A stretch of DNA of 56,602 nucleotides from Acidimicrobiales bacterium (GTDB taxonomy: Bacteria > Actinomycetota > Acidimicrobiia > Acidimicrobiales > RAAP-2), in the NCBI GenBank assembly GCA_030043315.1, contig JASHYA010000322.1:1-56602 (forward strand), written 5' to 3'. The first letter of the stretch is position 1; each line of letters opens with the position of its first letter. The position numbers and the translations under genes were made by a program. Below the pieces are notes generated by a model. It did no database searches, was not told where the DNA came from, and worked only from the letters and a program-made list of their open reading frames with translations. Shown piece by piece: positions 12,661 to 46,910 of the stretch.

Positions 12661-14142
12661 TCAGGGTCGCTCCGTCGCCACCTGCCACGCCGGACCCGTC
12701 CCAGGGCCTTGCTCCACCGCGGCGGCGAAGGCCGCCGCCAGGCGCCCACACTCCTCCCCGAGAGGTCGCCGGGACTCGATGGGCTGGATGTGGGCGCGCA
12801 CGAAGGCGAGCACGTCACGCAGCTTGGGGCTCACATCTCGCCCGGTGACGTGGAGGGCCTGCGAGCAGGTTGCAGCGAGCACCGCAAGCACCTCGTCCAG
12901 GCGGGCGGCCACTTCCCGCTCGGACAAGAACGCGATCGGTGCGGTGATGGCGACGTCGTCCTGCTCCGAGGCGGCGACCTCGGCCGGGGAGAGCAACGTG
13001 GGCTGGGCGAGGCGGCGCATCTCCTCTACGGCTTGGTTCGGGACGTATTCGAGGTAGGTGGTCGAGTGGCCGGTCGTGTAGTCGGTCCCAGGGGGCAGCA
13101 AGCGATCGGGAAGCCCTGAGACCGCACCACGGTGCAGCTTGACGATGTGACGTTGGGCGACGGCGGCGAGGTCGACCCACGCCGCCGACACGGCATCGAC
13201 GGCAGGTGCGGCAGCCGCGTCGTGAAAACCACCGGTCGAGAGGACGTCGGCTTCAGCTTGGCCCGTGGGCAGCAGGAACGTCGGATTGCTGACGACCGAA
13301 CGAAGCCCGCACGTCGCCACCTCCTCCAGACCCCACACGGCTCGCCGTGCCTGACCCAGGAGCCGGGGCAGGATTCGGTAGGCGGCCGGGGCGGACCGCT
13401 GCCGCCGTTCGCCGCCGGTGTCCTCGAGCCAGGAGGCCAGGGCTTCCAAGGCGGCCGAGGCGAAGGGGTCCCGCCACAGCTCCCCGAGCCGGGCGTCGCA
13501 CGCGTCAAGCGGGGCCCGAAAGGCCTCTATGGAGAGGGCCAGGCAGCCCTCCACCAGATCCACACGCCGGCGGGCGAAGATGGCGGTCAACCCCGCCATC
13601 GCGTGGGATGCGGGCGACCCGTTGCCCAGACCGGCCGAGAAGCCCTCGCCGGGGAAGATCCCCTCAGGGCCGCCGGTACGAAGGATGAAACGGGGCATGA
13701 GCTCGCCGGCGGCCACCAGCCCGCGAGCCGGCAGGCGGGCGAGCGGGCCGTCGAGGGAACTGGCGATGGACAGAGCCCGAGCCGGATGGGCGGCGGTCGC
13801 GCCCGAGACCAGCATGGGAAGAGAGGCGAGGACGGTGGCCCGGGACACGTACTCGGGGAGCGTTCCGCCCCCGAAGGACAGCCCCAGGAACGGCCGGGGA
13901 CGGCGGCGCCGGGCCTGAGCTTCCTCCAGTCCGTACCGCCGGCCGGCGTCGGGTCCGGCTCCCGTGGTGACCATGTAGATCGCGGAGTGCTCGTGGCGCG
14001 CCACGTGTTCCTGAAAGGCCGCGTGCGCCGCGGCCATGACCTCGAGCGCGCGGGCCGAGAGCCGGACGCCCTCGCCGCCGAGGGCTACGCGCCGGAGACT
14101 GTCCAGGTTGACGTCGGCAGGCCGGTCGATGAGGACGGTCAC
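12661..14142 (-). CDS. aromatic amino acid lyase-family (HAL/PAL fold) protein lacking the Ala-Ser-Gly MIO triad
   Basis: Family blocks: IYMVTTGAG (Tyr loop), AYRILPRLLGQA, VVSNPTF...STGGFH, EQDDVAITAP. The MIO loop reads RGLVAAGELMPRF where HAL has GSVGASGDLAPL. The GTG at 14142 overlaps the upstream stop (GTGA). Confidence 0.8.
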   Translation of the reverse strand: MTVLIDRPADVNLDSLRRVALGGEGVRLSARALEVMAAAHAAFQEHVARHEHSAIYMVTTGAGPDAGRRYGLEEAQARRRRPRPFLGLSFGGGTLPEYVSRATVLASLPMLVSGATAAHPARALSIASSLDGPLARLPARGLVAAGELMPRFILRTGGPEGIFPGEGFSAGLGNGSPASHAMAGLTAIFARRRVDLVEGCLALSIEAFRAPLDACDARLGELWRDPFASAALEALASWLEDTGGERRQRSAPAAYRILPRLLGQARRAVWGLEEVATCGLRSVVSNPTFLLPTGQAEADVLSTGGFHDAAAAPAVDAVSAAWVDLAAVAQRHIVKLHRGAVSGLPDRLLPPGTDYTTGHSTTYLEYVPNQAVEEMRRLAQPTLLSPAEVAASEQDDVAITAPIAFLSEREVAARLDEVLAVLAATCSQALHVTGRDVSPKLRDVLAFVRAHIQPIESRRPLGEECGRLAAAFAAAVEQGPGTGPAWQVATERP

Positions 14143-15608
14143 GGAACGGTTCCCGCGGTGGGCCCGGTGAGGCCGGCACGTCCTGTCGACGCCGCGGGTG
14201 GGAGGGGGAGGGAGCCGGTGACCGCGATGTCCGAGAGAGCCGCCGCCAGCCGCCCCACCTGAGCGCCCCGGTTCGCGGCTCGTGCGGGAGGGACGTAGGT
14301 ACGAACGAACGCGAGCAGGGGTCCCAGCCCGACCGGCGTGGGACGGTCGGTGAGGTCCAGGGCGTGGCTGGCGACCGCAGCCAGGACGGCCAGAGCCCCG
14401 TCGAGCTGAGCCGCGGCCGTCCACAGCCGCTCGGCGGCGACGAACGTCGGCAGGGCGACGTCTTCTTCACCTCCGTAGACCCCTCCCTCGGACGGGGGAA
14501 GGAACGTGCGGGCGGCGGCGTGGCGGGCCCGCTCGCCCAGGCCGACGGGAACGAACCCGAGGAGTCCCGTCGAAGTTCGACCGCCGGGTCCGGCCAGGCG
14601 GTCGGGCAACAGCGACACCGCCCCCCGATGGAGCTTGGTCGTGTGCCGGTCGGCCAGGGTGCAGAGGTCGGCCCACGTGGCCGCCAATGCGGCCATCGCA
14701 GGGTAGGCGGTCGCCGCGAACGAGCCGCCCGTGCTCAGGAGCGTCCCGTGCCCGCGGCCGTCGGTGGGCGGGAGGAAGACCTGATCCAGGGTCACGGCGC
14801 CGAGTGCGGACCGGGCAACGTCGTCGATCTGCGCCGCCGCCCGTCGGGCCTGTCCCAGGACCGGCGGAAGGACCCGATAGCTCACGGGGGCCTGGTAGGG
14901 ACGCCGGTCGGGGCCGGCGCCGGTCAGCCAGCGGTTGAGCCCGCCGAGGGCCTCGGCGACGAAGGGGTCGCCCCAGAGCCTCCCCAAAGCTGGGTCGTAG
15001 GCGGCGAGAGGGGCGGCCATCGCCTCGACGGAGAGCGCGAAGATGCCTTCGGCCAGAGCCAGGCGTCGGTGGGCCTGGAGGGCGGCGTCGGCGGCCAGTG
15101 CCGCCGAGCCGGGCGAACCGTCCAGCAGGGCCACGGCCTCGGCCTCCTGCAGATCGACCTCCGGCAAGCCTCGCAGCAGGTGGGCCAGGACCAACACCTC
15201 GCCCGCTGACGTCGTCCCCGCAACCGGGACCTCCGGCATGGGGCCGGCCAGCATCGAGGCAAGAGCCACGGCCACTTCGGGCCGACATGCGGCGTGCCCT
15301 TCGAGGAGGTCGGCGAGGCGGGCGAACACGATGCCGCGTACGACCCGCTCGGGAAGCCGAGTCTCCCCGAAGCCGTCGTCGGGCGGCCAAGCGGCCCGCC
15401 ACCCGGCGTCCTCGGCCGCCGGCGGAAGGGTGGCCAGCGGGAGATGAGCAACGGCGCTGTGTTCCAGAAGAAATGTGGCGAAGGAGCGGTGGGCGGCGGC
15501 CATGGCCCGACGTGCGCCGTGCGCCACGACCACCGTCTCCTTGTCGAAAGCCACTCGGCGGTAGTGCTCGAGGGTGATGTCGCCGCGATGGCGGACGGTG
15601 ACGGTCAG
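14139..15608 (-). CDS. degenerate aromatic amino acid lyase-family paralogue (no MIO triad, no Tyr loop)
   Basis: Family blocks: SYRVLPPVLGQA, STGGSF, EEDVALPTF. The MIO loop reads AGTTSAGEVLVLAH. The Tyr-loop region reads VAHLPLATL. The only start compatible with the N-terminal homology is CTG at 15608, overlapping the upstream TGA; the next in-frame GTG is about 17 codons downstream. Confidence 0.7.
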   Translation of the reverse strand: MTVTVRHRGDITLEHYRRVAFDKETVVVAHGARRAMAAAHRSFATFLLEHSAVAHLPLATLPPAAEDAGWRAAWPPDDGFGETRLPERVVRGIVFARLADLLEGHAACRPEVAVALASMLAGPMPEVPVAGTTSAGEVLVLAHLLRGLPEVDLQEAEAVALLDGSPGSAALAADAALQAHRRLALAEGIFALSVEAMAAPLAAYDPALGRLWGDPFVAEALGGLNRWLTGAGPDRRPYQAPVSYRVLPPVLGQARRAAAQIDDVARSALGAVTLDQVFLPPTDGRGHGTLLSTGGSFAATAYPAMAALAATWADLCTLADRHTTKLHRGAVSLLPDRLAGPGGRTSTGLLGFVPVGLGERARHAAARTFLPPSEGGVYGGEEDVALPTFVAAERLWTAAAQLDGALAVLAAVASHALDLTDRPTPVGLGPLLAFVRTYVPPARAANRGAQVGRLAAALSDIAVTGSLPLPPAASTGRAGLTGPTAGTVP

Positions 15609-16576
15609 GTTTGGCCCTGGTAGTCGACGACCGGCAGGCCGGCTTCCCGCCAAGCCACGAAACCGCCGTCGAGGTCGGTGGCGCGGGATAGCCCCAGGAA
15701 TTGGAGCTGCCGGGCCACCAGGCTCGAGGCGTAGCCCTCCATGCAGAACACGATGACGTGACGGTCGTAGGCGGCGATCTCGGAGATGCGGGAGGCGCTC
15801 CGGGGATCGAGGCGCCACTCGATCACGTTGCGAGGGATCGCCACCGCGCCAGGGATCTCGCCGGCCGCCTGGCGCTGCTCGACGGGGCGGATATCGACGA
15901 GCACCGCCCCCCCAGCCAAGGCGGTGGCGGCTTCGTGCGGCGAGAGCCGGACCAGGTGGCTCCGAGCCCTGGCCAGCAGCTCGTCGATGCTGTACGAGGC
16001 GGGTTGGCCGGGGGGGGTCGGCTCGGGGGAGTCGGTGGCGGCCGTCTCGACGGCCCCGAGGTCTCCGTCGCTCCACTGCTGATAGAAGGTCATGCTGGCC
16101 AGGGGTGGGGAGTAGGCGTGCAGGCTGACGGCGGGGCCTGGCCCCTCGTTGCCGACCACGTGGACGTAGGCGGCCCCGAAGCTGGCCCCTTCACCCGTGC
16201 CGAGCACCCTGCGGGAGAGCCGCAGCGGGCGGCGGGCGCTGTACCGCTCGACCAGCGATCCCTCCACGACCGTGAACGATCCGGAGGAGCCGCCGTGATC
16301 GTGGAGCCTCGTCTCTTGGGAGACGGCCCAGCCCTGCAGCCAAACGTCGACGTTCGACGCCAGGTGGAGCCGCTTGTACCAGCGGTGCGCAGCGTCGATC
16401 TGCACCACCGGTCGCCAGAGCTGCTCCGCGTGGGCGACGGCGGCCGTGAGGAGGGCCAGAGAGCGTGGAGGGATCCGGGACGAACCGAGTCGCAGGGAGT
16501 CGACGAGCGCGTCGATAGAACGATCGATTCCGCCCGAGCGAGGGTCGGCAACGGTCACCGACATCGAAACGAGCAC
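15605..16576 (-). CDS. cysteine dioxygenase type I (cupin) fused to a rhodanese domain
   Basis: CDO motifs: RLHDHGGSSGSFTVVEGSL and SLHAYSPPL. The C-terminal rhodanese domain reads LVDIRP...VIVFCMEGYAS, with the active-site Cys in CMEGY. The start is GTG at 16576 or ATG at 16564; AAGGAGGGAGG lies upstream. Confidence 0.8.
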   Translation of the reverse strand: MLVSMSVTVADPRSGGIDRSIDALVDSLRLGSSRIPPRSLALLTAAVAHAEQLWRPVVQIDAAHRWYKRLHLASNVDVWLQGWAVSQETRLHDHGGSSGSFTVVEGSLVERYSARRPLRLSRRVLGTGEGASFGAAYVHVVGNEGPGPAVSLHAYSPPLASMTFYQQWSDGDLGAVETAATDSPEPTPPGQPASYSIDELLARARSHLVRLSPHEAATALAGGAVLVDIRPVEQRQAAGEIPGAVAIPRNVIEWRLDPRSASRISEIAAYDRHVIVFCMEGYASSLVARQLQFLGLSRATDLDGGFVAWREAGLPVVDYQGQT

Positions 16577-19740: not shown

Positions 19741-21255
19741 TTAACCGGCGGGGTCCACGCCACTGGGGCCGGCGTCTGCAACGTCCCCCCGGCGAACCAC
19801 ATCCACGAGCGGCTCCAGGTCGGACGGAAGCGCCTCCCCCCGCCCGGCGAAAGGCACGATCCCCCGGACCAGCTCATAGGCGCGACCGGTGCCGGCACCG
19901 AGGCGGGAGGGCCGGCGGAGATCGACCGCCTGGGCCGCCACGGTCAACTCCACGGCCACCGTGCGCGCCGCCAGGTCCACCATGTCTGCGAGGCGGCGGG
20001 CCGACAGGGGTGCCATCGTCGTTCGATCCTCGATCCCGTCCGCCTTGCTGGTGCTCACCACCTCGAAAGACACGGGGTAGGCGAGGCTTCGGGCTTCGGC
20101 TGCGAGCGCCTGGGCGGTGAGGGCCAGCTCGGCCAGCGCATCCTCGCCGGTGTCCGCTTCCGCCGCGAGACCGGCGGGCAGGCCCGAGAACGGGGTCTGC
20201 AGCAGCTTCACCGTGCGCTCGGCGGCGGAGGTCACGACGGGCGCCAGGGCGATGCGGGCGAAGTCGAGGGCGGCGGCGACGGGAGCTGCGTCGAAATTGC
20301 CGACCGAGACGATCTGCCGGTCGGCGAGGACGACCGCGGGGTTGCCCTGAGCCGAGTTGAGCTCGGTCTCGACCGTCGCCCGCACGTAGGTGAGCGCGTC
20401 CCTGGCCGCGCCATGGATCTGCGGCACGCAGCGGAACGTGAGAGGATCCTGGAGGTTGCGCGCCGTGCCCGGATCGAAGATGTAGCTCCCTTGGAGCATC
20501 GCCCGGAGGCGGCCGACGGTGGTCCTTATCCCCGGGTACGGCCGTAGCTCTCCCACCGCCGGGTGCAATGGTGAGGGGTTGGCGGCGAACGCCTCGAGGT
20601 CCAGGGCCGCGGCGACATCGCTCGCGTCCAACAGGCGCTCGGCCGCGGCGACTGCGAGTGCGGCCCAGCCCGTGGAGAAGGCGTTGGCGTTGATGAGCCC
20701 CGGACCCTCCCCCTCCCGGAGGGAGAACCCGGACTGGCGAAGGAGCCCCTCGGCCAGGTCCGCCATGGGCCCGAGATCGGAGATCCCTACGGAGCTCAGG
20801 GTCCGCACCCGGGGCACGGTGCCTTGGTTGAGGGCGGCGAGGACCATGTCGGCGAGCTCGGGACGCACACCCGTCGCTCCCCGGGCATAGCCGTTCACGA
20901 GGCAGGTCATGGTCGCACGGACGACCTCGGGTGGTGCCGGGGGGCCCTGCGAGATCAGGTGACCGGACACGAGGAAGCGGGTGAACCGAAGACGTGTGGC
21001 GGGGTCGAGGTCGACCCTCTTGCGCTCGGCCACGGCGGTCGTGAGACCGTAGACGCGTTCGTTCGCACGCAGCGCCTCCTCGACCACCTGACGCGCCGCC
21101 GCGATCCGGTCCCGGGCCGCCGGCGCCAGCCCGACCAGCACGCCCCGCTCGGCGACGGCGACGAGCGAATCGAGGTTCAGCGAAGAGCCGTCGAGCAGCA
21201 CCGTTGGAGTCACAACGGGCGGAGCTTCGCCCGGGCGAGCGGCAGACGGTGTCAA
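19741..21255 (-). CDS. aromatic amino acid lyase-family (HAL-like) protein lacking the Ala-Ser-Gly MIO triad
   Basis: Strong HAL blocks: RVYGLTTA, LQDPLTFRCVPQIHGAA, SAQGNPAV...SVGNFDAAPVA, GIEDRTTMAP. The MIO loop reads SSVGISDLGPMADLA, one residue short with no ASG. The start is uncertain: TTG at 21255 or GTG at 21213 (the latter gives MTPTVLLDG, like its paralogues). Confidence 0.8.
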   Translation of the reverse strand: MTPSAARPGEAPPVVTPTVLLDGSSLNLDSLVAVAERGVLVGLAPAARDRIAAARQVVEEALRANERVYGLTTAVAERKRVDLDPATRLRFTRFLVSGHLISQGPPAPPEVVRATMTCLVNGYARGATGVRPELADMVLAALNQGTVPRVRTLSSVGISDLGPMADLAEGLLRQSGFSLREGEGPGLINANAFSTGWAALAVAAAERLLDASDVAAALDLEAFAANPSPLHPAVGELRPYPGIRTTVGRLRAMLQGSYIFDPGTARNLQDPLTFRCVPQIHGAARDALTYVRATVETELNSAQGNPAVVLADRQIVSVGNFDAAPVAAALDFARIALAPVVTSAAERTVKLLQTPFSGLPAGLAAEADTGEDALAELALTAQALAAEARSLAYPVSFEVVSTSKADGIEDRTTMAPLSARRLADMVDLAARTVAVELTVAAQAVDLRRPSRLGAGTGRAYELVRGIVPFAGRGEALPSDLEPLVDVVRRGDVADAGPSGVDPAG

Positions 21256-21295
21256 CGGCGCATCATGCTATGCAGGTCGGCGGTCCTCAGTGCCG

Positions 21296-21329
21296 GCTCC
21301 TCCCGCCTGCAGAGGACCCAGGGAGGAGC
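21296..21329 (-). other. intercistronic stem-loop between soxG and the HAL-like gene
   Basis: GCTCCTCCC-(16 nt)-GGGAGGAGC, a 9-bp perfect stem. It could act as an attenuator, terminator or mRNA stability element. Confidence 0.3.
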
Positions 21330-21400
21330 ACCACCCCGTCTCCGGAGGCCGCGGTGTCCCGGTGCCGTGAACGATCTCGAGATCGGAGTGAGGCGTCCCA

Positions 21401-22018
21401 TCAGATCTCCTGTTCGGGGTAGCCGGTCAGGCCGATTCCGAACTCTTGGCCCGCGTCGGCGAGTGCGTCGAACAGGAACTGCCCAGAAGAACGGTCGGAC
21501 ACGATGAGGTAGGACGGGTCTCCATCGACGTCATCGCGCACGACGGTCGAGACGACGGCTGCGACACGGCTCCGGAAGCTGGAGCCGTTCGGCGTGGCGC
21601 GGTCGGACAGGTCGATGGCGCACACCTTCTCGAGGGCCCTTCTGGCGCTCTCTCCGCTGAGACGGAGCACCACGCTCCCATGCGTCACGTCGATGACCGT
21701 CACGAGCGACGTGCAGCCGCGGAGCCGGGAGGCGATCATCTCCGAGACGGCGTCGGACCTCCCGGTGGGCGCGAGGACGAGCCAGCTGTCCGGCCCGGTC
21801 CCGACGATCAGGCTGCCGTCCTCGCGACGGGCACGGAGGTGCTCGCACAACAACGGGGCGACCTCGCCCGGCGCCCCCCGCACGAGCACCTTCGAGAGGG
21901 CGGTCATGTCGGCGAGGCGGAGCGCCGCCTTCGAGTGCGCGCTGCTCACCTCCCATGCGCCCCGCGTTCCCGTCGGTCCGGCGGGTGCGATCGGCGAGCG
22001 TGCGACGGGCTCAGCCAC
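21401..22018 (-). CDS. soxG: sarcosine oxidase-family gamma subunit (SoxG / N-methylglutamate dehydrogenase MgdD type)
   Basis: SoxG-like sequence: ARSPIAP..., LRLADMTALSKVLVRG, VIDVTHGSVVLRLSG. The GTG at 22018 overlaps the soxA end by 8 nt; the alternative start at 22051 would overlap by 41 nt. Confidence 0.75.
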   Translation of the reverse strand: MAEPVARSPIAPAGPTGTRGAWEVSSAHSKAALRLADMTALSKVLVRGAPGEVAPLLCEHLRARREDGSLIVGTGPDSWLVLAPTGRSDAVSEMIASRLRGCTSLVTVIDVTHGSVVLRLSGESARRALEKVCAIDLSDRATPNGSSFRSRVAAVVSTVVRDDVDGDPSYLIVSDRSSGQFLFDALADAGQEFGIGLTGYPEQEI

Positions 22019-24845
22019 GGAGCCGTTCCCCCGCCGGGTCGAAGTGGGCATGCTCCTCCATGACGCGCGCCGTCACCCTCGTCCCGTCCGGCTGCTTGAC
22101 CGTCACCACGGTGCCCGCGTGGGCGAGGTCGGCGGACACGATGCCGAGGCAGATCGAGCGCCCCAGCGTCGGCGAGAAGCGGCTCGAGGTGACCCTCCCC
22201 TCGATCTCGTTGGCGCCGCTCACGATCTGGCTCGCTTCGGGCGGCACGACGGTCGGGTCTGTCGGCTGCAGGCCGACGAGACGGAGCTCGTCTGACCGCT
22301 CCGACTGCCAGACGAGCTCGGGCCTGCCGGCGAAGTCCTCCTTGTCGAGCTTCACGAGCCAGTCGAGGCCAGCCGTGAACGCCTGCGTCAGCCCGTCGGT
22401 GTCCTGGCCGACGATGAAGTGGCCCTTCTCGAGACGCATGATCCGCTGCGCCTCGAGGCCGAAGGGCCCGACCCCGAGGTCTGCTCCGGCCGCCATGAGG
22501 GCCTCCCACACGTACAGGCCAAAGGCGGCCGGCACGTGGACCTCGTAACTCAGCTCCCCCGTGAAGCCGATCCGCCACATGAGGCAGTTGGCGACGCCGG
22601 CGATCGTCCCCTGCCGCACCTGCATGTACTTGAAGGCATCCGGGCCGAGGTCGACGTCGTCGACAAGCCGTCGGAGCAGCTCACGGGAGTTCGGCCCGGC
22701 GACGTTGATCGAGGCGAACGCGCTCGTCATCTCGGTGACATGGACCGACCAATCCGTAAACGTCGTCTGTAGCCAGTTCTCGATCCACTCGTAGATCGCG
22801 CTCGCGCCGGAGCTCGTCGTCGACATGAAGTAGTGGTCGGGACCGAGGTGGCCCGTCACACCATCGTCGGCGACGACCCCGTCCTCGCCGCACATCACTC
22901 CGTAACGGACCGAACCGATGTCGAGCTTCGACCACTTGTTCACATAGAGGAAGTTGAGGAGCCTCGGGACGTCCGGCCCGCGCAGATCCAACTTGCCGAG
23001 CGGCGTGACGTCGATGAGCCCGACGTTCTCGCGGACGTTGCGCACCTCGGAGGCCGGGTCCCCGTAGTGCTCGGGCCGAATCCACTGCCCGGCGACGATG
23101 GGCCGGGCTCGGACCGCCTCGTGCCAGGGCTGCATCGGCGAATAGCGGACTGGCTCGAGGTTGCGGCCGGCGAGCGCCCCCAGGCTGATGGGAACGTGCG
23201 GCGGGCGCCACACGGTGGTGCCCGTCTCGGCGACCGTTCGCCCGGTCGACTCGGCGAGCACCGCGACGGTGTTGATCGTCTCGAGCTTTCCCTGGGACGG
23301 CCCCATCGTCGCCGTCGTGTAACGCTTCACGAGCTCGACCGAGTCGTACCCCTCCTGAGCCGCCGAGACGAGGTCCTTCGACGAGACATCCTCGGACAGG
23401 TCGACGAACCCGTGGGTGCGCGACCTGAAGAGGGCGGGGTGGTCGGCGGGCTCGAGGCGTGGGAGCGCGGTGAGCGGGCCGTGCCCGTCGAGGGTCTCGA
23501 GTGCCCGGCGCGCCGCACGCAGCCCCGTTGCCCTGCCGTGCTCGACGAGGAGATCGACGTCGCCGTCGCCGACGAGACCACCCGTTGCGAAGACGTCCGA
23601 AGGCAGGTCGTCACCCGGCACGAAGCGGGCGGCACGGTCGCAGTAGCGCGGCTTCACGCCGGTCATGTTCACGAGAAGCGTCGGCGCCGTCCACCCGGCC
23701 GCCGTCACGAGGAGGTCGCACTCGACCCGGGCGCCGTCTCCCGTCTCGACTTCCGTCACCCCGCCGCGCCCGCGCGCCCTCAGAAGGGCGCCACCGCGCC
23801 GCGCGTCGACGACGGCCGCCACCTCGGCGCCGGCACGCTCGAGGGCTGCGGCGGCTGCCTCGCCGCTCTGGTTCCCCGTGAAGACGACCGCCCGTTCGCC
23901 TGGGCGGACCGCGTAGAGGTTGACGAGCCGGCTCACCGCGCTCGAGAGCATCACGCCGGGAAGGTCGTTGCCCTCGAAGACGTACGGCCGCTCGATGAGC
24001 CCGACCGCCACGACGACACTTTTCGCACGCGCCTTCACGAGCCGCTCGGTCACGTGCGGCATGCTTCGCTGCAGGACGGCGACCCAGTTGTCGTCGTAGC
24101 GTCCGGTCACCGCCGAGTTCGTCAGCACTTCGATCTGCTCGTGCGCCGCCACCGCCGCGCGCAGCTCCTGCAGTCGTGAGAGCGCGACCTCGTCGCCATA
24201 TCGGAGGTGGCCACCGAGCTCGTGCTCCTCCTCGACCAGCATGACCTCTGCCCCCGCCTCTGCCGCGGCGATTGCTGCGGCCATCCCTGCCGGGCCTCCC
24301 CCGGCGACGAGGACGTCGGGATGGGCGAAACGCTTGTCGTAGTCGCCGTGCGGGGACGATGCCGAGACGCGTCCGCCGGCTGCGAACCGTTGCAGGACGC
24401 GCTCGTACGCCGGCCACAACCGCTGCGGCTTGATGAAGGTCTTGTAGTAGAAGCCGGCACTGAGGAAGGGCCCGACGGCCTGGTTCGCCGCGCCGACGTC
24501 GAAGCGCAGCGAGGGCCAGGAGTGCAGGGCGCGCACGTCCATGCCGGCAGCAACCTGGCGGTGCGACGCGCGGACGTTCGGCTCATCGTCCACCTGCACG
24601 AGGCAACCGGGGTCGTGGAAGGTGGCCGTGAGGATGCCGCGCGGGCGGTGGTACTTGAAGCTGCGGGAGAGGACGCGGTCGCCGGCCGCCGCCAGGGCGC
24701 TCGAGATGGTGTCGCCGTCGTAGGCGGCACGCGAGGCGCCGTTCCAGTAGAAGGTGAGACTCCGAGAGCGGTCGATGACCTCGCCCGGCTGCGGCCCGAT
24801 GCGCCGAGTCGGACCGGCAACCACCCTCCCCCCGATCCGGATCAC
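22011..24845 (-). CDS. soxA: sarcosine oxidase-family alpha subunit (SoxA / MgdC type) with a C-terminal folate-binding GcvT-like domain
   Basis: N-terminus F.WNG....YDGDTISSALAAAG, SFKYHRPRG, NAD/FAD fold DVLVAGGGPAGMAAA, and a C-terminal aminomethyltransferase-like domain. The GTG at 24845 overlaps the soxD stop (GTGA). Confidence 0.9.
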   Translation of the reverse strand: MIRIGGRVVAGPTRRIGPQPGEVIDRSRSLTFYWNGASRAAYDGDTISSALAAAGDRVLSRSFKYHRPRGILTATFHDPGCLVQVDDEPNVRASHRQVAAGMDVRALHSWPSLRFDVGAANQAVGPFLSAGFYYKTFIKPQRLWPAYERVLQRFAAGGRVSASSPHGDYDKRFAHPDVLVAGGGPAGMAAAIAAAEAGAEVMLVEEEHELGGHLRYGDEVALSRLQELRAAVAAHEQIEVLTNSAVTGRYDDNWVAVLQRSMPHVTERLVKARAKSVVVAVGLIERPYVFEGNDLPGVMLSSAVSRLVNLYAVRPGERAVVFTGNQSGEAAAAALERAGAEVAAVVDARRGGALLRARGRGGVTEVETGDGARVECDLLVTAAGWTAPTLLVNMTGVKPRYCDRAARFVPGDDLPSDVFATGGLVGDGDVDLLVEHGRATGLRAARRALETLDGHGPLTALPRLEPADHPALFRSRTHGFVDLSEDVSSKDLVSAAQEGYDSVELVKRYTTATMGPSQGKLETINTVAVLAESTGRTVAETGTTVWRPPHVPISLGALAGRNLEPVRYSPMQPWHEAVRARPIVAGQWIRPEHYGDPASEVRNVRENVGLIDVTPLGKLDLRGPDVPRLLNFLYVNKWSKLDIGSVRYGVMCGEDGVVADDGVTGHLGPDHYFMSTTSSGASAIYEWIENWLQTTFTDWSVHVTEMTSAFASINVAGPNSRELLRRLVDDVDLGPDAFKYMQVRQGTIAGVANCLMWRIGFTGELSYEVHVPAAFGLYVWEALMAAGADLGVGPFGLEAQRIMRLEKGHFIVGQDTDGLTQAFTAGLDWLVKLDKEDFAGRPELVWQSERSDELRLVGLQPTDPTVVPPEASQIVSGANEIEGRVTSSRFSPTLGRSICLGIVSADLAHAGTVVTVKQPDGTRVTARVMEEHAHFDPAGERLRG

Positions 24846-25138
24846 GAGCTCCCGCCCCCCGCCTCCGCACCTGCATTGCTCCTCTCGAAGCGGGGCTTCG
24901 GGCGGGTGGCACGGACCTCGTTCGTGACGGTGTGACGTTCCGCCACGATGAACTTGCCGCAGCCGGCAGCGTGGAACCACTGCTCGGTCGTCCAACCGGC
25001 CGGGTTGGACTTCGAATACAGGTAGGTCCGCCACTCAGTTGGGGACGTGTCCGGGCCCGGCCGCCGCTTCTCCTCGCCGATGTAGCTGAACTCGTCGGAG
25101 TTGCGGGGCCCGCAGTGCGGACACGGGATGCGGATCAT
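24842..25138 (-). CDS. soxD: sarcosine oxidase-family delta subunit (SoxD / MgdB type)
   Basis: MIRIPCPHCGPRNSDEFSYIGE... is the canonical SoxD Zn-ribbon N-terminus. 98 aa. Confidence 0.9.
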   Translation of the reverse strand: MIRIPCPHCGPRNSDEFSYIGEEKRRPGPDTSPTEWRTYLYSKSNPAGWTTEQWFHAAGCGKFIVAERHTVTNEVRATRPKPRFERSNAGAEAGGGSS

Positions 25139-25166
25139 CGCCCCTTCTCCCTCGCCTCGCCCGGCA

Positions 25167-26507
25167 TCAGTGGCCCACCGCGGCCGCGCCGCGCTCACCG
25201 ACGAGAAGCCCGTCACCAAAGCGGGAGAGCCCGAACGAGGAGATGAGCTCCGGGGTCTTGCCCGTCGCGACGAGCTCGGCCATCGCCTCGCCTGCGGCCG
25301 GTCCCGCCTTGAAGCCGTAGGTGCCCCACCCGACGTCGACGAGGAAGCCCTCGACCGGCGTCGTACCCATGATCGGCGAGAAGTCAGGCGTGAGGTCGCA
25401 CAACCCTGCCCACTGCCTGAGGACCCGCATCTTGGCGATCGACGGCATCAGCTCGAGAACATGCGAGGCGAGCTCCTCGGTGAAGGCGAGGGAGCCACGC
25501 ATCGAGTAGGAGGGGTAGGGGTCGGTGCTCGCCCCGAAGACAAGCTCGCCCCGATCGGTCTGGCTGACGTAGACGTGCAGGCTGCCCGACACCACCACGG
25601 CGCCGAGGAACATCCTCACCGGCTCGGTCACGGCTGCCTGCAACGGGTGCGTGATGATCGGAAGCGAGACGCCGGCGAGAGACGAGACGAGCGACGCCCA
25701 TCCGGCGGTGCAGTTGACGACGATCGGAGACGAGATCTCGCCCCGGTTCGTGGTGACGCCGGTCACCTTGCCGTCGACGACGCCGATCGAGAGAACCTCG
25801 GTCCCTTGATGGATGTGGACGCCGAGGGCGTCCGCCGCCCGTGCGTACCCCCAGTTGACGGCGTCGTGCCGGATGATCCCACCGGGTGGGTGGTAGAGCG
25901 CGCCGAGTATCGGGTAGCGGGTGTGGCTCGAGATGTCCATGAACGGGACCAGCCGCTTGACCTCCTCGGGTGCGATCACCTCCGATTCCACCCCTTGCAG
26001 CTTGTTGACCTCGGCACGCCAGCGCATCGTCCGGAGCGACCCGTCGTTGTGGGCGAGCGTGAGGTGACCCCTCTTGGCGAACATCACATTGAAGTTGAGA
26101 TCGGCGGCGAGCGTGCTGTAGAGCGTCATCGACCGGTCGTAGAAGCGGACGCCCTCTGGCGTGAGGTAGTTGGACCGAAGGATCGCCGTGTTGCGTCCCG
26201 ACCCACCTCCACCCACGTAGCCCTTGTCCACGACGGCGACGCGTCGCATGTTGTGGTTGGCTGCCAGGTAGTAGGCGGTGGCGAGGCCGTGGACGCCGGC
26301 CCCGACGATGACCGCGTCGTAGGCGGACGCGACTTCGTGCTCCCTCCACGCCCGCTGCCACTTCTCGTGGGTCAGGCCGTGGCGCAGCAGGCTGAAGGCC
26401 GAGTAGGTCGTCGTCTTGCGCTGACCATCGGAGGCGGCGCCGCGGAGATGAATGAACCGGCGCGCCGCGGGTCGAAGGTCCGATCCCGCTCGTGCGACGC
26501 CCATCAC
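25167..26507 (-). CDS. soxB: sarcosine oxidase-family beta subunit (SoxB / MgdA type), FAD-dependent
   Basis: YSAFSLLRHGL, dinucleotide fold DAVIVGAGVHGLATAYYLA, and GGGGSGRNTAILRSNY (covalent-FMN His region). Confidence 0.9.
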   Translation of the reverse strand: MMGVARAGSDLRPAARRFIHLRGAASDGQRKTTTYSAFSLLRHGLTHEKWQRAWREHEVASAYDAVIVGAGVHGLATAYYLAANHNMRRVAVVDKGYVGGGGSGRNTAILRSNYLTPEGVRFYDRSMTLYSTLAADLNFNVMFAKRGHLTLAHNDGSLRTMRWRAEVNKLQGVESEVIAPEEVKRLVPFMDISSHTRYPILGALYHPPGGIIRHDAVNWGYARAADALGVHIHQGTEVLSIGVVDGKVTGVTTNRGEISSPIVVNCTAGWASLVSSLAGVSLPIITHPLQAAVTEPVRMFLGAVVVSGSLHVYVSQTDRGELVFGASTDPYPSYSMRGSLAFTEELASHVLELMPSIAKMRVLRQWAGLCDLTPDFSPIMGTTPVEGFLVDVGWGTYGFKAGPAAGEAMAELVATGKTPELISSFGLSRFGDGLLVGERGAAAVGH

Positions 26508-28580: not shown

Positions 28581-28603
28581 AGGACGCGCGCCGGGCTTCG
28601 GAG

Positions 28604-30027: not shown

Positions 30028-30075
30028 AGGATCGTCCTTTCCGGGCGTGACGTGTCGTCCACCGAGCGGCGGACG

Positions 30076-31452: not shown

Positions 31453-31878
31453 TCAGTGTCCGCCAGCGGGCTCCCAGCCCGAAAGCGCCGGCGGCTCCCA
31501 GTGGCTCCCGACGACCTCGCTGTCCGCCGTCCACGGGCCGAGCGCCCGTTGCGGAAACTTGGCGTGCTTGCGCTTCAGCTGGATCCCGTACGAGTTGCCG
31601 GCCTGCAGGTGTGCGATGAGCACCTTGCGTGCGACCTCGTCCTCGCGCCCTTCGGGAATCGGAAAATGGATCTTGAGAAAGGAGTTCGAGTACCGGTCGA
31701 AGACGGCTGGCACGCCGTCCTCCGTGAGGAGGTGGACGTCCTCCAGCCAGTTGAGATCAGGTCCGGGCGTGGCAGCGACGAGGTCGATGTCCTCGACGAG
31801 GGAGATGTCGTGCTGGTAGGGATACGAGCGCCCGGCGAGCTCCTCTGCGTCGATGGTGACGTGGCGGGACTTGGCCAT
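31453..31878 (-). CDS. hypothetical protein (141 aa), translationally coupled to mgsC
   Basis: MAKSRHVTIDAEELAGRSYPYQHD...; I recognise no family. The ATG shares one base with the mgsC TGA (TGATG). ORF 31453..32334 is an out-of-context extension. Confidence 0.5.
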   Translation of the reverse strand: MAKSRHVTIDAEELAGRSYPYQHDISLVEDIDLVAATPGPDLNWLEDVHLLTEDGVPAVFDRYSNSFLKIHFPIPEGREDEVARKVLIAHLQAGNSYGIQLKRKHAKFPQRALGPWTADSEVVGSHWEPPALSGWEPAGGH

Positions 31879-33272
31879 CAGAGCTCCCCTTCGGTCGGAT
31901 TCTTCGAGAGGAGCCTGCGCATCTCGGCGAGCAGGTTCGCCTCGGTGACGCCGGGGATGTAGTCGGTGCCGGCCAGGGGCACCTTCGCCATCGCCGCCGC
32001 CTCGACCGTGAGCGCGCAGAGGTCCTCCGGCTCGAGGCTGTGGACGTTCGTCTTGCCGCACGCTCGGGCGAGCATCTGCACCTCGAGGGTCAGGGTGTGC
32101 AAGAAGTTGTAGACACGCTCGGCGGCTTCGTCGACGACGAGCCGCTTGCGCAGCTCGGGATCCTGCGTCGTGATCCCGACGGGACAGCGACCAGTGTGAC
32201 AGTGGTAGCAGTAGCCGGCCGGGACGCCGATCGTCCCCTCGTAGTCGGTCACGCCGGGGATCTCTTTGTTGCAATTGAGCGCCATCAGCGCCGAGTGGCC
32301 GATGGCGATAGCCGTCGCGCCCAGTGCGAGGCACTTGGCGACGTCGCCGCCGTTGCGGATGCCGCCGGCCACGACGAGGTCGATCTCATCGGCGAGGCCG
32401 ACGTCCTCGAGGGCCCTGCGCGCCTCGGGGATGGCGGCCATGAGCGGGATGCCCGTCTCCTCGGCCGCGATGTGCGGCCCCGCTCCCGTGCCGCCTTCGG
32501 CGCCGTCGAGATAGATGATGTCCGGGCCGCACTTGGCCGCCATGCGGACGTCGTCGTAGACGCGAGCCGCACCGAGCTTCAGCTGGATCGGGATCTGGTA
32601 GTCGGTCGCCTCCCGCACCTCCTGGATCTTCAAGGAGAGGTCGTCCGGGCCGAGCCAGTCGGGATGACGGGCGGGGCTGCGCTGGTCGATCCCGACCGGG
32701 AGCGAGCGCATCTCGGCCACCTGCTCGGTCACCTTCTGGCCCATGAGGTGGCCGCCGAGGCCGACCTTGCACCCCTGGCCGATGAAGAACTCGCACGCAT
32801 CGGCCAGCATGAGGTGGTGCGGGTTGAAGCCGTACCGGCTCTGGATGCACTGGTAGTACCACTTCGTCGAGAAGTCGCGCTCGGGTGGGATCATCCCTCC
32901 CTCGCCCGAGCACGTCGCCGTCCCTGCCATCGACGCTCCCTTGGCGAGTGCCATCTTCGCTTCGAGCGAGAGGGCGCCGAAGCTCATCCCGGTGATGTAG
33001 ATGGGGATGTCGAGCCGGATCGGGTTCTTGGCGAAGCGAGCGCCGAGCACGGTCTTCGTGAGGCATTTCTCGCGGTACCCCTCGATCACGAACCGGGTGA
33101 GGGTTCCCGGCAGGAACATGAGCTCGTCCCAGCTGGGCATCTTCTTGAAGAGCGAGAAGCCGCGCATGCGGTATCGGCCGAGCTCGGATTTGATGTGTAT
33201 GTCGTTGATCACCTCGGGGGTGAAGATCCTCGAGTGCCCGAGGATGCTGCGCTCCGATGTCTGTTCCTCCAC
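31878..33272 (-). CDS. mgsC: N-methylglutamate synthase subunit C (glutamate synthase FMN-domain protein)
   Basis: GltB domain-2 motifs: ITGMSFGALS, GEGGM, QGCKVGLGGHL, DGAEGGTGAGP, VVAGGIRNGGDV. GTG start with an AGGAGG SD. Confidence 0.85.
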   Translation of the reverse strand: MEEQTSERSILGHSRIFTPEVINDIHIKSELGRYRMRGFSLFKKMPSWDELMFLPGTLTRFVIEGYREKCLTKTVLGARFAKNPIRLDIPIYITGMSFGALSLEAKMALAKGASMAGTATCSGEGGMIPPERDFSTKWYYQCIQSRYGFNPHHLMLADACEFFIGQGCKVGLGGHLMGQKVTEQVAEMRSLPVGIDQRSPARHPDWLGPDDLSLKIQEVREATDYQIPIQLKLGAARVYDDVRMAAKCGPDIIYLDGAEGGTGAGPHIAAEETGIPLMAAIPEARRALEDVGLADEIDLVVAGGIRNGGDVAKCLALGATAIAIGHSALMALNCNKEIPGVTDYEGTIGVPAGYCYHCHTGRCPVGITTQDPELRKRLVVDEAAERVYNFLHTLTLEVQMLARACGKTNVHSLEPEDLCALTVEAAAMAKVPLAGTDYIPGVTEANLLAEMRRLLSKNPTEGEL

Positions 33273-33281
33273 ACCTGCCTC

Positions 33282-34073
33282 CTAGAGGACGAGCTTGCGC
33301 TCGTTCGGCTCGAGCGAGTCGTAGTTCCACAGCTTCCGCCCACACTCGAACTTGCGGAAGCTTCCGGGGTGCTCGATCCCGTAGGCCGTGAGCTTCCCTT
33401 TCAGCATCTCCTCGTCGGTGTCGGTCAACTCGGCTTCCACGCAGTCGACGCCGAGCGACTCGACCTTGCCGGCGACGTAGATGGCGCCGTCGTACATCGA
33501 GTCGCCGAGCCCCGGACCGACGTTCCCGCAGATGATCTGGCGCCCCCGCTGCATCATGAAGCCGGTCATCAGCCCGGCGTTCCCCCCGACGATGATGGTG
33601 CCGCCCTTCTGGTCGATGCCGGTTCGGGCCCCGACGTCGCCGCGCACGACAAGATCGCCGCCTCGAAGTGCTGCACCGGCGAGCGATCCTGCGTTCTTGT
33701 CGATGACGACGACACCCGCCATCATGTTCTCGGCGACGGACCAGCCGACACGACCGGCCACCTCGGCTTCCGGCCCGTCGATCAGCCCGAGCCCGAAGTA
33801 GCCGAGGCTGCCCTCGAAGCGCAGCCTGCACCGTTCGAGGATGGCCACCCCGATCGAGTGCTTGGCGCCGGGGTTGAGGACCGTGATGTCCCTCACGCCC
33901 TGGTCCACGAGCAGCCAGCGGATCTCGAGATTGACGCGTCTCGTCGAGTAGCCGGTCGCGTCGAAGACGGCGCGACCGTCCTCGATCTTCGACGTCTTGG
34001 GAGCCTCGGCGTCGGGCTCGACGAGCCCGCGGGCGTCGTAGCGGATCCTGCGCTCTCCTACTACCTGTGCCAC
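33282..34073 (-). CDS. mgsB: N-methylglutamate synthase subunit B (GXGXG-motif glutamate synthase domain)
   Basis: Beta-helix repeats: GSLGYFGLG, AGRVGWSV, VRGDVGARTG, VGGNAGLMTG, CGNVGPGLG. Confidence 0.85.
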   Translation of the reverse strand: MAQVVGERRIRYDARGLVEPDAEAPKTSKIEDGRAVFDATGYSTRRVNLEIRWLLVDQGVRDITVLNPGAKHSIGVAILERCRLRFEGSLGYFGLGLIDGPEAEVAGRVGWSVAENMMAGVVVIDKNAGSLAGAALRGGDLVVRGDVGARTGIDQKGGTIIVGGNAGLMTGFMMQRGRQIICGNVGPGLGDSMYDGAIYVAGKVESLGVDCVEAELTDTDEEMLKGKLTAYGIEHPGSFRKFECGRKLWNYDSLEPNERKLVL

Positions 34074-34993
34074 ACGAGCACCTCCCCCTCGTACGGGTCG
34101 TGCGTATCGATCTCGTGGTCGATGACGGCCCTGATGGCGACTTCTTCGGAGGCGAGCGCCACGAGGTCCTCGCCTTCGTAGAGGACGAGCGGCTTCGCGG
34201 CCATCACGTCCTTTGCGACGCCGAGCTCGTCGCGGGTCACGACGACGTAGGTGAAGACGCCGTCGAAGTCATCGAGGCTCTCTTTGATGGCCGTCTCTAG
34301 CGGTACGGCGTGGTTCAACTTCTCGGCGAGGTAGACGGCGATGATCTCGGAGTCGCACTCGGACTGGAAGCGGTGGCCGAGTCGCTCGAGCCGACGGCGC
34401 CACTGGTGGTAGTTGGTCAACTGGCCGTTGTGGACGACAGCGACGTCGCCGAAGGGGTAGGCCCAGTACGGGTGGGCGCCGGCGATGTCGACATCGGACT
34501 CGGTTGCCATGCGGACGTGCCCGATGGCATGGGTTCCCGTGAAGTGGTCGAGCCCGTACTGCGCCGCGACGGAGACGGCGTCGCCGAGGTCCTTGACGAT
34601 CTCGAGCGAGTGCCCGACCGAGAGCACCTCTGCCCCCGAGATCGCCTCGACGTAGTCGACGAGCGACTTCAGGTCGCCCTCGTAGTCGATGACGGCACGG
34701 TAGGCGTAGTCCGTGACGCCTTCGAAGCGATCGATGCGGGCGCCCACCTTCCCGAGCCGAGCCTCCAGCTCGGCACGGCGCTGCTCGATCAGCTCGCTGA
34801 ACTCGATCGTGCGGGCGGCGTTCGGGTCCGCGAGCTTGATGCGCAACACCAGCTCCTCCGACGGCGCGCTGTACAGGGCGAAGCCGGTCGAGTCTGGACC
34901 CCGGTGCTTCATGGACTGAAGCATCCGCGTCATCTCCGACCCGACGTCAGCGACCGCGCCCCCCTTGTGGATGATGCCGGCGATGCCGCACAC
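34061..34993 (-). CDS. mgsA: N-methylglutamate synthase subunit A (class II glutamine amidotransferase domain)
   Basis: GTG-Cys start (V)CGIAGII, the Ntn nucleophile, with MKHRGPDSTG. An AAAGGAGAG SD lies directly after the gmaS stop. Confidence 0.85.
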   Translation of the reverse strand: MCGIAGIIHKGGAVADVGSEMTRMLQSMKHRGPDSTGFALYSAPSEELVLRIKLADPNAARTIEFSELIEQRRAELEARLGKVGARIDRFEGVTDYAYRAVIDYEGDLKSLVDYVEAISGAEVLSVGHSLEIVKDLGDAVSVAAQYGLDHFTGTHAIGHVRMATESDVDIAGAHPYWAYPFGDVAVVHNGQLTNYHQWRRRLERLGHRFQSECDSEIIAVYLAEKLNHAVPLETAIKESLDDFDGVFTYVVVTRDELGVAKDVMAAKPLVLYEGEDLVALASEEVAIRAVIDHEIDTHDPYEGEVLVWHR

Positions 34994-35007
34994 CGTGCTC
35001 TCCTTTC

Positions 35008-36402: not shown

Positions 36403-36487
36403 AGGCCCTCCCGTCAGACGGAAGCCGGGGTTTCCCCTCAGGAAACTCCGACTGCTCTCATGATACGGGTCACCCAGCTCAGGCGCA

Positions 36488-36874
36488 ATGAGCACACTGA
36501 GCGAGCGTAGACTCGCCGTGATGAAAGGGGCTCGTATCACGGTCAAATGTGACTGCGGCGAGATCAACTACGTCGACTACGGCGAGATCTGGCAATGCCC
36601 CAAGTGCAGGCGGCGGTGGAACACCTCGCAGATCCCGGCCGAGGAGTACTGGGGCCTCATGCACGACATGCGCAGGGAGCGCTACACGATCATGGGAGCG
36701 GCGCTCGGGGTCGGCGTCGCCTTCCTCGTCCTCGCCTTCGCCGTCTCGGAGGCGTTCATCTTCCTCCTCCCGGTCACCTTCGGCGGCTGGTACCTCATGT
36801 ACATGCCGCGCTGGCGCAAGCGCTTACGCATGAAGGCCCGCGCCGCACCCACCTGGGAGCTCCGACCGGAATGA
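36488..36874 (+). CDS. hypothetical zinc-ribbon membrane protein
   Basis: CDCG...CPKC Cys4 ribbon followed by two hydrophobic helices. The start is uncertain: 36488, or the Met 11 codons downstream. Confidence 0.5.
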   Translation: MSTLSERRLAVMKGARITVKCDCGEINYVDYGEIWQCPKCRRRWNTSQIPAEEYWGLMHDMRRERYTIMGAALGVGVAFLVLAFAVSEAFIFLLPVTFGGWYLMYMPRWRKRLRMKARAAPTWELRPE

Positions 36875-39781: not shown

Positions 39782-40028
39782 GTCACCCTCCCCTTGCTGG
39801 AACCGCGCTGGCACTCCGTGCGGGCGACAGACTCCCCATCCCGGCCCCCTGCAGCCAGCCGCTCGTGTTCACTGTTGCGAAACTGTGTCCACTGCGGATA
39901 ACTTCGTCGGCATAGTAGTCCACGCCGGGGGAAATGTGAAGGGACTCTTTGGGCCCCGTTTCCTCCCCGGGGTTGTGGCCTATCTTGCACGCCATGGCGA
40001 CGGTACAAGCCCGGAGGGGACACCAGAG

Positions 40029-41743: not shown

Positions 41744-41746
41744 GGG

Positions 41747-46607: not shown

Positions 46608-46623
46608 GAGGCTCCCCCCCGAC

Positions 46624-46768
46624 CTTCTCGTGAGCTGACCGTGTTCGCTCGCAGTGAACGATGTTGACTGTAGGTGACCGCCACCACCGTCGCAACAGGT
46701 CGAACGGACAAGGCCCGGGCGCGATCGGGCGCTCACCCCCCGGGCGGTCGAGCTTCTCGTGAGCTCGA
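46624..46768. repeat. 13-bp direct repeat CTTCTCGTGAGCT (46624, 46753); the second copy lies within a 21-bp inverted repeat
   Basis: Both copies lie in the 303-bp region upstream of tmd. TCGAGCT-tctcgtg-AGCTCGA spans 46748..46768. Confidence 0.5.
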
Positions 46769-46910
46769 GCAGGATCACAGAAGTCGTTCGTCGACGGCCG
46801 GTCCGATCTCGCCCTTGCGACTCCGACACCCGCCACTCTCCTTGGCCGAGGCTCCAACTCGCAGGCGCCTGGAAAAGACCTGCGCGCTGGATGCCGTCGG
46901 TCGCGCGGAC

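Follow-up and report, generated by a model that had tools for sequence, protein, structure and literature searches.

Background

The characterised ammonia-lyases of the histidine ammonia-lyase (HAL) fold all need the electrophile 4-methylidene-imidazol-5-one (MIO; bioRxiv 10.64898/2026.04.22.720169). A class of trimethylammonia-lyases without MIO has recently been recognised, with few characterised members: some cytoplasmic ergothionases and three periplasmic enzymes of Shewanella, among them the histidine betaine trimethylammonia-lyase (HBTL) Swoo_3913 of S. woodyi and SO_3299 (bioRxiv 10.1101/2025.08.13.670108; bioRxiv 10.64898/2026.04.22.720169). Members of this class have retained the Tyr base and the residues that bind the carboxylate (Gln, Arg, Asn) and the imidazole (His, Glu) (Bertsova et al. 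preprints), and they lack the Ala-Ser-Gly triad because trimethylamine departs with no need of an electrophile (same two bioRxiv preprints). According to the authors, all characterised MIO-deficient lyases require a trimethylamino group; in ergothionase, Lys384 binds the thiolate, and its replacement has been reported to abolish activity (bioRxiv 10.64898/2026.04.22.720169). Here we describe lyA, a gene for a MIO-less lyase of family PF00221 on contig JASHYA010000322.1 of an Acidimicrobiales bacterium; the whole stretch analysed (56,602 nt, G+C 68%) is referred to as the window.

By analogy with the enzymes above, lyA probably encodes a cytoplasmic trimethylammonia-lyase acting on hercynine or a close derivative and yielding urocanate and trimethylamine. 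The loop and Leu280 signature, the kept imidazole binders, the missing Lys384, the hutU-linked orthologs, and the betaine, trimethylamine, and C1 genes nearby all agree with this assignment. The broader assignment, as a trimethylamine-releasing lyase of some histidine betaine, is held with good confidence, and the narrower one, with hercynine itself as the substrate, is tentative and falls somewhat short of an even chance. From alignments and gene neighbourhoods, we infer what lyA catalyses and on which substrate, what becomes of the products, and any co-regulation with the sox-type operon upstream. A literature search identified no open papers on the lyA clade.

Results

The MIO-position loop and active-site residues of lyA

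The lyA product matched Pfam PF00221 over its full length (358 bits against a cut-off of 27.3, E=7.7e-107) and scored 305.3 bits with the NCBIfam hutH equivalog TIGR01225, under its cut-off of 539.15; the NCBIfam scan returned no model that names lyA. The longest open reading frame (ORF) runs from 19741 to 21255 on the minus strand (504 aa, TTG start), and the GTG at 21201 was favoured as the start by the public gene call of the contig (P0001) and by the ortholog alignment. Aligned with PDB 1gkm and the orthologs, the N-terminus begins at HAL residue 8, with no leader or signal peptide. A P450 gene is convergent with lyA, so lyA ends its own transcription unit.

The alignment with Pseudomonas putida HAL (1gkm) set SVG-I-S-(gap)-D against SVG-A-S-G-D, with Ala142 replaced by Ile, Ser143 kept, and Gly144 deleted, in agreement with a first-pass annotation of the window, made from the letters alone, which had described the loop as one residue short, with Ile-Ser and no Gly. 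Every motif string that it quoted (RVYGLTTA, SSVGISDLGPMADLA, LQDPLTFRCVPQIHGAA, GNFDAAPVA, and IEDRTTMAP) was present in lyA. The position of HAL Tyr280 is occupied by Leu (Leu254, within QDPLTFR), the equivalents of HAL Tyr53, His83, Asn195, Gln277, Arg283, Phe329, and Glu414 are kept, and the protein is ~20 residues shorter than HutH after the loop. From its loop, lyA is predicted to be unable to form MIO.

We surveyed the family through the best 120 of at least 3,477 matches from 5.8 billion proteins, taken as cluster representatives. These were 69-74% identical to lyA and mostly metagenomic, with the few named ones being metagenome-assembled genomes (MAGs) of Streptosporangiaceae. The Ala-Ser-Gly triad was missing and the loop was one residue short in all 120; the loss of MIO is a family trait and not an accident or decay. 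The loop read GSVG-Q-A-DL in 107 of them, with Ala in place of the Ser that becomes the methylidene, and the motifs QDPLTFR and GIEDR[TM]T were identified in 117 and 120, respectively. Among species-representative genomes, relatives with at least 49% identity all belonged to uncultured Actinomycetota (Streptosporangiaceae, Acidimicrobiia, and Gaiellaceae). Because ~190 positions are invariant in the alignment of 26 relatives, with the catalytic set included (Tyr51, His81, Asn171, Gln251, Arg257, Asn287, and Glu391), the lyA family is predicted to be a functional enzyme family under constraint.

Relationship to characterised lyases

The best PDB sequence match of lyA was the Trypanosoma cruzi HAL 6v6h (E=3e-57), and the second was the Treponema denticola ergothionase 6s7j (E=2.4e-52). 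The Swoo_3913 sequence was taken from the preprint supplement and aligned with ergothionase, HAL, lyA, its two window paralogues lyB and lyC, and further relatives. A loop shorter by one residue together with Leu at HAL Tyr280 was common to lyA (SVG-IS-D, QDPLTFR), Swoo_3913 (HBTL; SVG-LS-D, QDALSFR), and T. denticola ergothionase (TdETL; SIG-EG-D, QDPLSFR), a signature derived here from the two characterised sequences and not a published criterion. True HALs from the same genome scan retained SLGASGDLAPLA and QDPYSFRC. The column of ergothionase Lys384 is occupied by Leu in lyA and by Gly or Val in the orthologs, in line with the Asn of Swoo_3913.

The first-pass annotation had proposed placing the paralogues in a family tree with ergothionase and other betaine lyases, and a neighbour-joining (NJ) tree answered this in part. 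Canonical HALs were monophyletic without lyA in 98 of 100 bootstraps; groupings of lyA with the characterised MIO-less lyases were recovered in only 38-50 of 100. A MIO-less clade of Acetobacteraceae and Lichenihabitans (L009-L018, L034, L036, L038), 35-38% identical to lyA, branched as the sister group of the lyA clade in 85 of 100 bootstraps and carries the signature SVG-A-S-D, QDPLSFRC, and GNMETT, with His at the Lys384 column.

Another PF00221 clade, from Streptomyces (L041-L083, lyase at ~10001-11400 of each locus), has the shorter loop SVG-T-G-D and keeps Tyr280 (QDPYGFRC), and it is located 5-9 kb from hutU-M20-hutF-hutI in ~35 genomes. Its Gly-Thr-Gly may cyclise, or the clade may be another MIO-less lyase of a histidine derivative.

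Genomic context of lyA orthologs

We collected 39 loci with lyA orthologs (51-74% identity). The commonest immediate neighbour, found in 13 distinct loci (L001, L003, L005, L084, L087, L088, L090-L093, L096, L109, and others), was a PF02574 gene, usually tail-to-tail or head-to-head with the lyase, whose nearest solved relative is betaine-homocysteine methyltransferase (BHMT; PDB 1lt7, E=3e-54, versus 7e-21 for MetH). This BHMT-like neighbour is an independent pointer to a quaternary-ammonium substrate. Along with the trimethylamine dehydrogenase (TMADH) homologue and the methylamine pathway of the window, it supports the methylated-amine substrate that the first-pass annotation had put forward. 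No homologue of the BHMT-like gene, of an S-methyltransferase, of hutU, or of Amidohydro_2 was identified in the window. A TMADH homologue was adjacent to the ortholog in L094 and ~6 kb off in L006. Recurrent as well were a shared ABC importer of the SBP5 type, Fae, and an alcohol dehydrogenase resembling class III, which in L011 come after the lyase on its strand.

A hutU-M20-hutF-hutI cluster was identified within 1-8 kb of lyA orthologs (71-73% identity) in L003 and L084. The hutU, hutF, and hutI genes passed their equivalog cut-offs, with hutU scoring 905 bits, the urocanase failed the cut-offs for thiourocanate hydratase and S-methyl-thiourocanate hydratase, and no other PF00221 gene was found in these hut-linked flanks. 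With the His and Glu that bind imidazole conserved and hutU-hutF-hutI beside these orthologs, lyA probably yields urocanate from a histidine derivative. The first-pass annotation had read the lack of hutU, hutI, and hutG as evidence that this is not a histidine-utilisation operon. That is true of the window, where hutI and hutG were also absent in Pfam scans, but it is misleading on the substrate, with His and Glu kept and hut-linked orthologs at hand.

Several points weigh against a lyase of hercynine or a close derivative. The lyA protein shares only 25-28% identity with the characterised trimethylammonia-lyases, which is close to its 29% identity with P. putida HAL. Deep nodes of the NJ tree were weak, with the MIO-less supergroup recovered in 50 of 100 bootstraps and the grouping of lyA, the Acetobacteraceae clade, and TdETL in 38 of 100. 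The AlphaFold2 model of lyA had a mean predicted local distance difference test (pLDDT) score of 70.8, with active-site loops below 50, and Foldseek gave equal TM-scores for HAL and ergothionase (overall 0.78-0.81 to HAL, PAL, TAM, and ergothionase). The alignment around the Lys384 column of ergothionase is uncertain by +/-1 residue, and the Ile-Ser loop of the window is unlike the Gln-Ala loop of the orthologs. As for context, a hut operon was nearby in only 2 of the 39 loci, no hutU was found in the window by Pfam scans and tblastn with hutU, and a cysteine dioxygenase (CDO)-type cupin, present in ~12 ortholog loci and in many cases accompanied by an Amidohydro_2-like gene or joined to a rhodanese, hints that the substrate bears sulfur and is not plain hercynine.

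Possible sulfur-bearing substrates

These cupins bring up a 2-substituted hercynine derivative (ergothioneine sulfinate or sulfonate, S-methyl-ergothioneine, or an ovothiol-type betaine) as the substrate, with the neighbouring CDO-like or BHMT-like enzyme making or consuming the sulfur substituent, both of which we regard as doubtful. CDO_I or CDO-rhodanese genes stand beside the orthologs, and in the window the distance to lyA is 3 kb. The PF02574 family consists of Zn-dependent thiol methyltransferases, and a small residue (Gly, Val, or Leu) occupies the Lys384 column, with room at C2. Such pathways are also known: NCBIfam holds models for S-methyl-thiourocanate hydratase and desulfurase, and an ergothioneine-sulfonate pathway and an ergothioneine dioxygenase have been published. 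However, the urocanases beside the orthologs are ordinary hutU by NCBIfam thresholds, no thiohydantoin desulfurase was found near any ortholog in the 39 loci, and the known ergothioneine dioxygenase is, per a preprint, not classed with the thiol-dioxygenase superfamily of CDO.

It is improbable that lyA is an ergothionase converting ergothioneine to thiourocanate and trimethylamine, although ergothionase is its second-best PDB match and shares its loop length and Leu280, sulfur-handling neighbours are common among the orthologs, and the closest relative with pathway context (ly565 of L143, 43% identity) lies in an Ert-type operon. The thiolate-binding Lys384, the residue whose replacement is reported to abolish activity, is missing in lyA and in all its orthologs, and the relative in the Ert operon has Arg. 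Thiourocanate hydratase, thiohydantoin desulfurase, ErtD, and ErtE genes were identified neither in the window nor in any of the 39 ortholog loci. We rejected lyA as the ergothionase of an Ert pathway because of its residue at the Lys384 column and the missing Ert genes.

In locus L143 (positions 361-10518; Acidimicrobiales MAG contig JBTRVL010000007.1), ErtD-like, thiourocanate-hydratase-like, thiohydantoin-desulfurase-like, and ErtE genes precede three PF00221 genes, namely the lyA-like ly565, with 43% identity and Arg at the Lys384 column, and orthologs of lyC (55%) and lyB (63%). Its gene content predicts an operon for ergothioneine utilisation that has three lyases in the place of the one ergothionase expected.

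Paralogues lyB and lyC

The first-pass annotation had counted three MIO-less paralogues in the window with lyA as the most HAL-like, and both statements agree with our results. The loops of lyB and lyC (LVAA-GE and TTSA-GE) also lack Ala-Ser-Gly, and the PF00221 scores were 358 bits for lyA versus 137 and 103 bits for the ORFs at 12661-14424 and 14139-16076. The two are 24-25% identical to lyA and 42% identical to each other, and their motifs, an xA-GE loop, (Q/S)APxSYR, and (E/Q)DDV, are unlike those of every characterised subfamily. At its start lyC overlaps the CDO-rhodanese stop, and at its stop the GTG of lyB; the three genes look like one translationally coupled unit. The catalytic Tyr and His are missing in lyC and its orthologs, whereas lyB and its orthologs keep the Tyr, and a heteromeric MIO-less lyase of lyC and lyB with one inactive subunit is plausible from these motifs.

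In the HAL fold, each active site is built from three subunits, and a lyC-lyB pair accompanies a lyA-like gene in no fewer than 4 independent contexts (the window, L001, a JGI contig, and L143). Together with the missing catalytic Tyr of lyC, which suggests a structural partner, this could mean that lyA is not autonomous, as a hetero-oligomer subunit with lyB and lyC or a non-catalytic paralogue. We hold this to be very improbable: lyB and lyC are missing from the surroundings of most lyA orthologs (L003, L084, L085, L087, and more than 25 metagenome loci), lyA keeps the full catalytic set with the invariant positions described above, and in the window it is 4 kb from the lyC-lyB pair with opposite-strand genes between them.

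The sox-type operon upstream of lyA

Profile scans confirmed that lyA lies downstream of a soxB-soxD-soxA-soxG-type operon on the same strand, as the first-pass annotation had stated. The gap of 145 nt that it gave is correct up to the TTG at 21255 and becomes 199 nt up to the likely GTG at 21201. The 9-bp stem-loop that it noticed there exists as a perfect inverted repeat (GCTCCTCCC at 21329-21321 and GGGAGGAGC at 21304-21296, 16-nt loop), but it is not statistically remarkable. Perfect inverted repeats of at least 9 bp occurred in 41 of 1000 shuffles and thus make it only mildly unusual, the intergenic fold was no more stable than that of shuffles (z=0.41), and the repeat was not favoured in the minimum-free-energy fold. 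The scan of the gap identified no terminator or promoter consensus, and the repeat has no T-tract; it could be an operator or nothing.

Sox genes stood beside the lyase in 0 of the 39 ortholog loci. The adjacency is therefore peculiar to this contig, and we rejected the sox operon as the definer of the lyA substrate, along with the argument of the first-pass annotation that linkage to an N-methyl amino acid dehydrogenase indicates a methylated-amine substrate. The methylated-amine substrate that it had derived from this linkage survives on other grounds: a quaternary N-trimethyl amine is the best explanation, as the signature of lyA matches that of MIO-less trimethylammonia-lyases. The sox-like genes scored below the sarcosine-oxidase cut-offs of NCBIfam. 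Because they are most likely the N-methylglutamate dehydrogenase genes (mgdABCD) of the adjacent gmaS-mgsABC pathway, any link between lyA and sox would be indirect, through released trimethylamine, with no shared N-methyl amino acid substrate. An ordinary histidine ammonia-lyase working without MIO or with another electrophile, or a sox-tied lyase of an aromatic betaine or N-methyl amino acid, is hardly credible: two ortholog loci do place the gene beside hutU operons as the only PF00221 gene in the flanks, and lyA does adjoin the sox-like operon in the window, but the characterised ammonia-lyases of this fold all need MIO, lyA has lost Ala-Ser-Gly and Tyr280 and scores 305 against 539 for the hutH equivalog, the His and Glu that it conserves point to imidazole and not to a phenyl or indole ring, and no ortholog locus shares the sox adjacency.

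Methylamine and C1 genes in the window

The TMADH homologue of the window scored 889 bits with TMADH versus 512 bits with histamine dehydrogenase. Electron transfer flavoprotein (ETF) is the electron acceptor of TMADH, and the homologue, the ETF subunits, and the iron-sulfur (Fe-S)/CCG protein look like a complete electron-transfer module for trimethylamine (or dimethylamine) dehydrogenase. The window also encodes Fae and two mycothiol/NDMA-type (N,N-dimethyl-4-nitrosoaniline) alcohol dehydrogenases. Coordinates of all features are given in Table 1.

Table 1. Features of the lyA region and of the methylamine genes in the window.
Feature	Position	Strand	Evidence or remark
lyA, MIO-less PF00221 lyase, 486 aa	19741..21201	minus	GTG start at 21201; PF00221 E=7.7e-107
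RVYGLTTA, catalytic Tyr (HAL Tyr53, beta-proton acceptor)	21034..21057	minus	HAL alignment; Tyr51 invariant in relatives
MIO-position loop SSVGISDLGPMADLA, residues 136-150	20752..20796	minus	alignments to PDB 1gkm and 6s7j; family census
LQDPLTFRCVPQIHGAA, LQDPLTFRC... segment; carboxylate-binding Gln and Arg kept, Leu at HAL Tyr280	20404..20454	minus	alignments
GNFDAAPVA	20275..20301	minus	motif check
ELALTAQ, segment aligned to ergothionase Lys384	20110..20130	minus	Leu; no cationic residue within +/-2
IEDRTTMAP, conserved Glu (HAL Glu414, imidazole N binder)	20008..20034	minus	alignments; family census
lyB, third MIO-less paralogue	12661..14142	minus	PF00221; GTG overlaps lyC stop (GTGA)
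lyC, second MIO-less paralogue	14139..~15609	minus	start uncertain; public gene call P0239
CDO-type cupin fused to rhodanese	15605..16576	minus	3 kb from lyA
soxG-lyA intergenic region	21202..21400	minus	holds 9-bp inverted repeat
soxB-soxD-soxA-soxG-type operon, probably mgdABCD	21401..26507	minus	upstream of lyA, same strand
soxG-like	21401-22051	minus	profile scans
soxA-like	22011-~24845	minus	below NCBIfam cut-off
soxD	24842-~25132	minus	PF04267, 4e-27
soxB-like	25167-26507	minus	below NCBIfam cut-off
gmaS-mgsA-mgsB-mgsC-like (N-methylglutamate pathway, monomethylamine)	31878..36567	minus	5 kb upstream of sox-type operon
ETF beta and alpha subunits, membrane Fe-S/CCG protein	39624..43873	plus	profile scans
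TMADH homologue	44403..46829	minus	PDB 1djn/2tmd E=1.9e-266, 889 bits, full length

Further genes were identified around these. Within 27456-36567, after the gmaS-mgsABC-like genes come a DAO-family flavoprotein (30076-31413) and a pair of stand-alone GcvT-like proteins, of which the one at 28891-30027 matches the C-terminal half of trimethylamine N-oxide (TMAO) demethylase with E=1.6e-142; by sequence, the DAO-family and GcvT-like genes could form a split demethylase for another methylated amine. Directly upstream of gmaS, at 37342-39814 on the minus strand, are an amino-acid permease and a PhyH-family Fe/2-oxoglutarate dioxygenase with a weak match to methylphosphonate hydroxylase, which could hydroxylate or demethylate another quaternary amine. 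In the outer parts of the window (574-3611 and 49605-54827), LigD and Ku of non-homologous end joining were identified at one end and a TetR/BetI-type regulator, an amidohydrolase, an agmatine-deiminase-like gene, and urease subunits at the other.

Discussion

Proposed reaction and fate of the products

In the reaction proposed for lyA, Tyr51 (in VYGL) would abstract the beta-proton in an anti-elimination on an N-alpha-trimethylated histidine derivative. Trimethylammonium, itself a good leaving group, would depart unaided and make the electrophilic MIO dispensable. The shortened loop and Leu254 would then replace the MIO/Tyr280 apparatus, with Leu at HAL Tyr280 plausibly making room for the bulky N(CH3)3+. 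Urocanate would enter a Hut pathway encoded elsewhere, whereas trimethylamine would be oxidised by the TMADH homologue of the window with ETF and passed, through a dimethylamine step, to the gamma-glutamylmethylamide/N-methylglutamate pathway, to which the sox-like dehydrogenase genes upstream of lyA would belong. Formaldehyde would be handled by Fae and the class-III-type alcohol dehydrogenases. This flow of trimethylamine into the N-methylglutamate pathway would explain why lyA adjoins the sox genes without a shared substrate.

A wider reading, which we consider speculative and a shade more doubtful even than the 2-substituted substrates, connects the paralogue trio, the CDO-rhodanese, the BHMT-like partner of other genomes, and the TMADH, ETF, and N-methylglutamate genes in an undescribed aerobic actinobacterial route for the full mineralisation of ergothioneine or hercynine, with a lyC/lyB heteromer serving a second betaine. 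In such a route, the cupin would strip sulfur as a thiol/thione dioxygenase, lyA would release trimethylamine and urocanate, and the methylamine pathway would harvest the carbon.

Most likely, judging from these alignments, lyA is no new kind of enzyme but an uncharacterised soil-actinobacterial branch of the MIO-less trimethylammonia-lyases, and it points to a large, environmentally abundant, and mostly metagenomic clade that is uncharacterised. If lyA is indeed a hercynine lyase, soil actinobacteria would recycle hercynine and ergothioneine, abundant metabolites of fungi and actinobacteria, into the Hut pathway, and aerobic soils would have an unappreciated source of trimethylamine wired to TMADH and the N-methylglutamate pathway. 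The shorter loop, Leu280, and the Lys384-column residue would then serve as a practical rule for telling trimethylammonia-lyases, at present annotated as 'histidine ammonia-lyase', from sequence.

Comparison with known systems

HutH (P. putida 1b8f/1gkm; T. cruzi 6v6h) has the same fold and the same catalytic and binding residues as lyA, but lyA differs in having no MIO triad and Leu in place of Tyr280, in scoring below the hutH equivalog cut-off, and in its position outside the HAL clade. The ergothionases (T. denticola 6s7j; Burkholderia sp. HME13) are, like lyA, cytoplasmic and MIO-less, with the same loop length and QDPL[ST]FRC, and the 6s7j structure superposed on the lyA model with a TM-score of 0.79-0.80. 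They differ in sequence (28% identity) and in the thiolate-binding Lys384, which is Leu in lyA. SO_3299, the N(pi)-methyl-histidine-betaine lyase of Shewanella oneidensis, compared by its description only, is also MIO-less with a neutral residue (Gln) at the Lys384 position but, unlike lyA, is periplasmic and respiration-linked (bioRxiv 10.64898/2026.04.22.720169); it shows that the trimethylammonia-lyase class has diversified onto several histidine-betaine derivatives.

HBTL Swoo_3913 resembles lyA in its PF00221 fold without Ala-Ser-Gly, its hydrophobic-Ser loop, Leu280, and NFD motif, in the Tyr base, the Gln/Arg/Asn carboxylate site, and the His/Glu imidazole site that both keep, and in a neutral residue at the Lys384 position (Asn439 in HBTL versus Leu in lyA). 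At ~25% identity, the two are not orthologs. HBTL is periplasmic and coupled to a urocanate-reducing flavocytochrome in anaerobic respiration (bioRxiv 10.1101/2025.08.13.670108), whereas lyA has no signal peptide, no flavocytochrome was found near it, and its family occurs in uncultured Actinomycetota in catabolic contexts of an aerobic type (hutU, TMADH/ETF, BHMT-like, and CDO-like genes).

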